Source of the DNA: a virus
Lineage: Duplodnaviria; Heunggongvirae; Uroviricota; Caudoviricetes
IMG/VR virus record: IMGVR_UViG_2660238318_000012
Strand: one strand, 5' to 3'
Length of the DNA stretch: 16,061 nucleotides
The stretch's first letter is position 1. The number at the start of each line of letters is the position of its first letter. The notes beneath the pieces are model-generated. The model searched no databases, was not told the DNA's origin, and was given only the letters and a program-made list of their open reading frames with translations. The position numbers and the translations under genes are program-made. This document shows, one piece after another, positions 8,979 to 9,080 of the stretch.

Positions 8979-9055
8979 GTGGCCCCAGCGTCCTGGCACC
9001 ACGGGCGAGAATAATCATGATTCAGTTCGGGTAAAATATGCCGATCCGCTCAGTG

Positions 9056-9080
9056 AACAACGTGGAACAACCACGAACAA
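9056..9080 (+). repeat. Phased GAACAA x3 array (site B) upstream of the capsid operon
   Basis: AACAA at 9056, 9066, 9076, exactly 10 bp apart; 15-mer shared with site A (1580-1594). Confidence 0.45.

Follow-up and report, generated by a model that had tools for sequence, protein, structure and literature searches.

A capsid-forming island and its att arms

The window, by which we mean the entire stretch of 16,061 nucleotides that was analyzed, contains a capsid-forming PICI (cf-PICI) of ~14.8 kb inserted between phoQ and roxA. It is 99.99% identical to Shigella flexneri SFBU1023 (L003), and the closest annotated E. coli relative, which is 96% identical, places the island between the same two genes. 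The phoQ gene (1–1461) forms the left flank, and to its right all of the major genes lie on the minus strand, specifying a terminase, an HNH protein, a head-tail connector, a portal, a protease, the major capsid protein, small ORFs, a primase (10547–12295), AlpA and a P4-type tyrosine integrase with an N-terminal Arm-DNA-bind_3 domain (int, 14832–16061). EcCIEDL933, the prototype of the cf-PICIs, has an integrase 100% identical to the one in the window. The element thus combines an int-alpA-primase backbone with portal, protease and terminase genes and an HK97-type capsid gene of its own, within ~15 kb flanked by att repeats, as is characteristic of cf-PICIs. As compared to EcCIEDL933, the major capsid gene bears a nonsense codon (W276*, codon 276, in the 8013–8015 region), and the Shigella cf-PICI copy with this codon probably cannot make its own capsids. 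A run of 87 N (masked) at 6106–6192 renders the ORF calls in the portal-gene region unreliable. Immediately downstream of the primase gene, positions 10259–10546 are densely filled with direct and inverted GTCTACC/GGTAGA iterons, a cluster that is probably the replication origin of the island.

The left boundary of the island is formed by the attL core AAATATGTCC (1459–1468, plus strand), which overlaps the phoQ stop codon. This 10-bp core was delimited by comparison with the empty site of K-12, which reads TAAATATGCCCATACTTCAC, and the same 10-mer recurs as the right flank of the island in L001 and L003. With one copy at 1459–1468 and a second ~180 bp beyond the end of the window, the island spans ~1459 to 16242, and its length is therefore ~14.8 kb.

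Each att arm carries a module of ~65 bp, in direct orientation, composed of a 12-bp doublet (TTAACTACACC ×2), a spacer of ~17–18 bp and an array of AACAA units. In the left arm, the tandem doublet TTGACTACACC/ATTAACTACACC occupies 1539–1561 on the plus strand and provides candidate Int arm-type sites, with the AACAA array at 1580–1604 about 17–18 bp away; the right arm is equivalent, so that a candidate RDF-type site stands beside a candidate arm-type site on both sides. The doublet is confined to the att arms, and its right-arm copy is co-oriented with the left. Between the core and the left doublet, a regular-expression search returned an exact match to the IHF consensus (WATCAANNNNTTR, 1484–1496, minus strand), which, judging from the match, is a putative IHF site.

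The sequence of the doublet changes with the integrase. It is ACTACACC in islands with the phoQ, tqsA, smrA and cspD integrases, CTGACCACAC with a 66%-identical integrase, TGTATTGC in the helper-embedded PICIs (HE-PICIs) and TTTAGTTATACG with a distant tRNA-site integrase. The switch also occurs while the AlpA allele is constant, as in L010 versus L018/L057. The P4 record annotates its attP arm repeats as 12-bp doublets that flank the core in the same orientation, as in the window, with the motif GGGGGCAT in place of ACTACACC, and the doublets of CP4-57 are similar to those of the window. Thus, the attP has the architecture of the P4 family, with co-oriented 12-bp tandem doublets in both arms and an integrase bearing an arm-binding domain. 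Because the motif follows the type of Int and the annotated P4 arm repeats share the layout, the doublets (ACTACACC ×2) are better assigned to the arm domain of Int, as putative arm sites distinct from the AACAA arrays. A comparable layout is reported for HE-PICIs by Tommasini et al. (2023), where the doubled TGTATTGC ×2 is present in two co-oriented copies at about −81 and +132 bp from the attP centre (PMC10111431, section 19); the ACTACACC doublets of the window lie at about +86 and −145 bp. That section of the account leaves open whether Int or AlpA binds the HE-PICI doublet, and it describes no second phased array of the AACAA type. The separation of the 12-bp Int arm sites from the RDF-type sites is the very question left open for HE-PICIs.

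Several other repeats are found at the ends of the island. Two perfect 16-bp palindromes, TATGGGGATCCCCATA in the left arm (1671–1686) and CAGTATGCGCATACTG downstream of the int stop codon (14799–14814, between it and the AACAA array described below), are preserved in many of the related islands, and dimeric regulators might bind them. Three exact copies of the 14-mer ATCAGGCTGGTGGG, a sequence that includes the Chi octamer GCTGGTGG, are present (1723–1736 on the plus strand, 2917–2930 and 14008–14021 on the minus strand), identical beyond the octamer, along with a copy with one mismatch at 9893–9906; other PICIs, too, keep the left-end copy. Four GTCAC units phased at 10–11 bp (tgtcacggtgtgtcactggttgtcactctccgtcac) lie at 1974–2008 on the plus strand, just beyond the last gene of the island (2128–2406). 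This array is kept in L001 and in L009, a classic PICI with a different packaging module, and it could be a pac/cos-related or regulatory site.

Phased AACAA arrays and their conservation

The 15-mer AACAACGTGGAACAA occurs exactly twice in the window, at 1580–1594 and 9056–9070, in both cases on the plus strand and within AACAA units spaced exactly 10 bp apart, as an earlier reading made from the sequence alone had recognized. That reading considered the repeated 15-mer to be far beyond chance. By itself the 15-mer is weak evidence, because the window has at least five other exact repeats of 15–16 nucleotides, but the phasing of the units does lie far beyond chance. Among the 43 AACAA/TTGTT words in the window, six same-strand pairs are exactly 10 bp apart, and in the whole window there are none at spacings of 5–9 or 11–15 bp. 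In 2000 second-order Markov simulations, the mean number of 10-bp pairs was 0.021 and the maximum was 2. When up to one mismatch was allowed, AACAA-N5-AACAA matched the window 14 times, against 1.74 expected. An unbiased scan of 30-kb loci for any 5-mer phased at 10–11 bp returned almost nothing other than AACAA arrays. In 38 distinct arrays, the spacing between units was 10 bp in 111 of the 139 pairs and 11 bp in 26. The arrays thus have the geometry of RDF sites, namely short head-to-tail direct repeats about one helical turn apart.

The left-arm array (1580–1604, plus strand) consists of AACAA at 1580 and 1590 and CACAA at 1600, with 10-bp spacing, and holds one copy of the 15-mer. The other copy lies in the capsid-operon array (9056–9080), which has three exact units at 9056, 9066 and 9076 and, in the direction of the genes (minus strand), reads TTGTTCGTGG TTGTTCCACG TTGTTC. 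Two further arrays were absent from the sequence-only reading. The largest of all (14740–14784, minus strand) comprises TACAA followed by four AACAA units at 10-bp spacing and is located between int and alpA, 48 bp downstream of the int stop codon and ~285–330 bp upstream of alpA. The fourth, in the right att arm just past the end of the window in the same genome, has units TACAA, AACAA and AACAA with a further unit.

The additional copies that had been listed on the other strand are weaker. The one at 13472–13479 is a single unit and not significant. The other, AACAAACAGACACAA (9380–9394, minus strand; listed as 9379–9394), is a putative two-unit site beside the RBS of a 74-aa ORF (9141–9365) and is identical at 13 of 15 positions to the left-arm AACAAATAGACACAA. 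It is kept along with the 74-aa ORF cassette, and as an array site it is plausible, at a level not separable from chance or from conservation of the cassette. The ORF itself is flanked by two identical intrinsic terminators, each composed of AGCCGGAGCAATCCGGCT and a minus-strand T-run (9104–9121 and 9467–9484), which suggests an inserted moron-like cassette.

A motif search across related islands, proposed along with the original observation, revealed that the arrays are kept in position, core and phasing in ~50 islands at no fewer than four integration sites. None of the islands examined at the phoQ, tqsA, smrA/abgR and clpS/cspD sites lacks the left- and right-arm arrays, and EcCICFT073 has them as well. 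In the alignments, the cores and their phasing are preserved while the spacer bases vary. The arrays are constant across integrase types and across four replicase modules that are unrelated or divergent, and they persist whether or not the island has the Arc-like gene. Of the ~45 cf-PICI modules of the E. coli type, most have an intact capsid array, and about ten have a change in one unit. When aligned to EDL933, this array keeps a fixed distance of ~240 bp on the upstream side of the capsid start codon; in the window it lies 216–240 bp from the capsid ATG at 8840.

AACAA arrays in general were found only where AlpA is at least ~60% identical. The int-alpA array, with 2–6 and mostly 3–5 units, was counted in all islands with an AlpA identity of at least 90% and in none of those with 40–67%. 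The motif is the same for AlpA alleles 1 and 2, which are 49–67% identical and share the recognition helix and wing. Where AlpA is only ~45–52% identical, the arrays are degraded or absent. Among the alleles reached, through three loci from a contig search with AlpA and 19 proteins from a homologue search, no clean switch of motif was seen. In L064, which has AlpA allele 2 (64% identical), the capsid array is retained even though the capsid protein is only 69% identical, whereas in L058 and L062, with equally diverged capsid modules, the three-unit array is missing and AlpA is ~50% identical with a different recognition helix. Retention of the capsid array may therefore track AlpA similarity, in what amounts to a weak co-variation. 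In place of a single AlpA, these two helper-embedded PICIs (L062/L058, ~3590–4384) have two to three AlpA-family paralogues in tandem downstream of int.

The capsid array overlaps a candidate activator-dependent promoter (9033–9060, minus strand), composed of a −35 hexamer TTGTTC (9055–9060), a 16-bp spacer and a −10 hexamer TATTTT (9033–9038), and the −35 hexamer coincides with the last unit of the array. A scan with the sigma-70 consensus did not call this promoter, the −35 being weak, and its placement is proposed from conserved hexamers and spacing: in L064, TTGTTC, TATTTT and the 16-bp distance are all kept despite the diverged spacer sequence. Directly upstream of the array lies the conserved box TTTTGTAAATTAT (9082–9094, minus strand), which is invariant even in distant cf-PICIs (L058–L066), including those that lack the array. 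The box is possibly a degenerate extra unit, a module junction or the site of a second factor. A similar box, TTCTGTAAACCAT, is found ~20 bp upstream of the alpA −35 (about 14566–14578).

Downstream of the candidate promoter, the capsid operon has a structured leader of ~190 nt (8841–9032, minus strand; fold z −4.2). Directly before the capsid ATG, this leader ends in a GC-rich hairpin and a U7 run (8848–8877, minus strand; z −3.1). The hairpin sequesters AGGA and is conserved in L064, where the upper part of the stem differs; its appearance suggests an attenuator/terminator or else a gate on translation. An Rfam scan of the window, including the capsid leader, gave no family match. Between the int-alpA array and alpA, a conserved hairpin lies between an A-run and a T-run (14617–14645; z −3.65 and −2.79) and resembles a bidirectional terminator. 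It is conserved in the alignment, and its homologue in L008 has a z of −5.9. Closer to the gene is a sigma-70-like alpA-proximal promoter, TTGCCA-17-CACAAT (14519–14547, minus strand), of which TTGCCA is conserved in the alignment.

AlpA and other candidate readers of the arrays

The alpA gene (14269–14457, minus strand) encodes a winged-helix protein of 62 residues that belongs to Pfam PF05930 (E 5e-18). It is 42% identical to P4 Vis, another member of this family (E 1.7e-20). The best fold matches of the AlpA model (pLDDT 86.6) are solved excisionases, comprising the GIsul2 excisionase 8C3T (TM 0.83), RdfS, Pukovnik Xis and TorI. The island thus encodes a small winged-helix protein of the RDF type. 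AlpA-family proteins act as excisionases in CP4So (PMC5148205), and AlpA is required for PICI excision (PMC11773190). Overexpression of AlpA alone leads to excision and replication of the PICI, and AlpA alone activates a PalpA-lacZ fusion of EcCICFT073 while leaving Pint unchanged (PMC6092414). When the published PalpA primers were mapped, the fragment corresponded to L078 4128–4583 and included the six-unit array of EcCICFT073. As a class, RDFs bind head-to-tail to direct repeats with a period of one helical turn, and several double as regulators of promoters (PMC7498355). The literature searched yielded no operator or binding data for AlpA in PICIs.

We therefore consider, with a probability of roughly 0.6, that the AACAA arrays are AlpA operators linking excision, autoregulation and transcription of the capsid operon. 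The case for AlpA as the binder is built on the elimination of rival readers and on the analogy with known RDF sites. The original proposal of a single-protein regulon joining the att site to internal promoters survives in its core, with sites now located in both arms, in the int-alpA region and at the candidate capsid promoter. As for the three binders it had named, AlpA emerges as the best candidate, while the Arc-like protein and the arm-binding domain of Int are disfavoured.

A close parallel in core and geometry is offered by TorI of KplE1 (CPS-53), a winged-helix RDF whose mapped sites are 5-bp GTTCG cores; three of these are spaced at 10 bp in a block that adjoins the −35 of PintS, and two more make up a second block (PMC2951348). 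On their other strand, the arrays of the window read TTGTTCG, TTGTTCC and TTGTTCA in the same geometry. On the other hand, TorI is distantly related to AlpA, with no PF05930 match and a fold TM-score of 0.63, and it represses intS, whereas the PICI AlpA is without effect on Pint. The TorI blocks lie within the att arm carrying the int promoter and are described for that one arm, attL (PMC2951348), while the window has arrays in both arms. P4 Vis, like AlpA, is a PF05930 protein, recorded as both excisionase and transcriptional regulator, and P4 also has an integrase of the P4 type. Unlike the window, P4 has no capsid genes, its late promoters are served by Delta/Ogr, and vis is not next to int. 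Apl of phage 186 and Cox of P2 bind cooperatively and head-to-tail to repeats one turn apart, at both att sites and promoters (PMC7498355). However, they belong to protein families different from that of AlpA, and at promoters they mainly repress the lysis-lysogeny switch, whereas AlpA is described as an activator.

A protein of the same name in P. aeruginosa offers a likeness of layout. This AlpA is an antiterminator, with a promoter site and an intrinsic terminator right before the first gene (PMC7969949), and the window has a hairpin and U7 run at the corresponding place. However, its element lies between −35 and −10, while the array of the window lies at and upstream of −35. The P. aeruginosa protein is larger (with residues beyond 140) and has eight helices in a Q21-like fold (PMC9371919), and no PDB sequence match links it to the window AlpA. 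Homology was thus rejected, the P. aeruginosa protein being a different, Q-like one that shares only the name and layout, and antitermination by the window AlpA is therefore unsupported from homology.

Several observations weigh against AlpA. The motif is unchanged between alleles 1 and 2, so that positive co-variation is lacking. The allele-2 islands L010, L018, L052, L057 and L064 have no array upstream of alpA, so that such an array is not the general route of autoregulation. The best sigma-70-like promoter of alpA lies ~200 bp downstream of the int-alpA array, beyond the terminator-like hairpin, and relative to transcription this array is oriented opposite to the capsid array. Arrays are present in both arms, whereas RDF sites usually occupy one att arm. 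Finally, AlpA left unchanged the activity of a Pint fusion expected to span the right-arm array (PMC6092414), the extent of this fusion being assumed, as its primers have no exact match in CFT073.

An unlikely alternative is that the arrays are bound by a protein of the helper phage, such as a Xis/Cox-type RDF, or by a host protein. Helper phages would then turn on alpA by way of the int-alpA array. Upstream of vis in P4 (9176–9205) there are three tandem repeats of 10 bp, and we take these to match the P2 Cox box consensus. P2 Cox acts on P4 DNA and activates the P4 prophage (Saha et al. 1989, as cited in PMC7498355), helper phages induce alpA (PMC6092414), and RDF cross-talk between PICI and helper is documented (PMC11773190). 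The invariance of the arrays across AlpA alleles would also fit a reader from outside the island. However, AlpA without any phage activates the array-bearing PalpA fragment and induces excision, and the arrays are lost with distant AlpA although the hosts and lambdoid helpers are similar. Moreover, the arrays adjoin the Int arm sites in the att arms of the island, where its own RDF is expected. A variant that joins the two readers, and that we hold to be quite unlikely, is a shared RDF landing pad, read by AlpA and also by excisionase-type proteins of helper phages. If this were true, the five-unit array would be the long-sought input for the induction of Gram-negative PICIs by lambdoid helpers, and read-through into alpA and the capsid operon would be controlled by bound filaments in combination with the terminator-like hairpins downstream of the two internal arrays.

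It is distinctly improbable that another conserved small protein of the island (DUF4222, Icd-like or PerC) reads the arrays. A DUF4222 gene is indeed annotated in EcCICFT073 and in all six E. coli islands for which full gene tables were examined, but none of these proteins has a recognized DNA-binding fold of the RDF type, and the array-bearing fragment was activated in a two-plasmid assay with AlpA only. We give still less weight to the view that the arrays are extra arm-type sites of the integrase, which would then also act as a transcription regulator. Two of the arrays do lie in the att arms, Int has the Arm-DNA-bind_3 domain, and IntS of KplE1 represses its own promoter through arm sites (PMC2951348). 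However, an Int tetramer is already accounted for by the four co-oriented half-sites of the doublets, which co-vary with Int type, while the arrays are unchanged when the N-terminal domain of Int changes (L018/L057). In addition, arrays are found at internal promoters without doublets, and PalpA is activated by AlpA without Int. Co-variation and the architecture of P4 thus led us to set the Int arm domain aside as the array binder and to assign it to the ACTACACC doublets instead.

That the arrays are functionless, as remnants of duplication or an effect of base composition, is very improbable. The arm modules are indeed direct repeats of each other over ~65 bp, and the window holds other 15–16-mer repeats. 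This reading conflicts with the exact 10-bp phasing at four loci, with the preservation of the cores while spacers vary across different Int, replicase and capsid modules, and with the maintained spacing to the −10 hexamer in a diverged module. The Arc-like/RHH protein (YlcI) was rejected as the binder, its gene being absent or highly divergent in many array-bearing islands, including EcCIEDL933. Replication iterons for the primase/replicase, like the P4 ori/crr repeats, were likewise rejected and have next to no probability: the P4 type I iterons (TGTTCACC) bear a superficial likeness to the arrays and are found at two loci far apart, one next to attP, but directly downstream of each replicase gene comes a cluster of iterons specific to that type (GTCTACC in the window; TAACCCGCA, TGTTCACC and AAGTGGG in other islands), while the AACAA arrays are identical across the four types and do not co-vary with the initiator.

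A proposed link between excision and capsid production

Taking AlpA as the reader, we propose that its protomers would bind the arrays head-to-tail, one per helical turn, as RDFs do, and that AlpA induced by a helper phage would fill them cooperatively. In the att arms, AlpA bound beside the Int doublets would bend the DNA and shape the excisive intasome, biasing recombination toward excision in the role of an RDF. The five-unit array downstream of int belongs to the region where AlpA would act to stimulate its own gene. At the capsid operon, where the last unit of the array lies on the weak −35, AlpA could act in a class II-like manner and switch on the capsid and packaging genes. We infer here all three of the binder, the position of the promoter and the direction of regulation. 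Given that helper phages induce alpA, the arrays would couple the sensing of the helper to excision, AlpA amplification and the making of capsids.

In descriptions of Gram-negative PICIs, AlpA figures as their master switch, needed for excision, self-amplification and transfer. In the literature searched, its role is debated between activator, excisionase or both, and its DNA target is undefined. The operator proposed here, (G)AACAA every 10 bp in both att arms, upstream of alpA and at the capsid promoter, would provide one mechanism for both roles. This class of mechanism is known from Vis, TorI, Apl and Cox; what the analysis contributes is a specific candidate operator, the separation of Int sites from RDF-type sites and the proposed wiring of the capsid operon to AlpA. 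If AlpA is not the binder, the arrays would mark another factor at four control points of a widespread satellite family. If it is, the arrays would explain how a phage-derived capsid module became wired into the induction circuit of the PICI.
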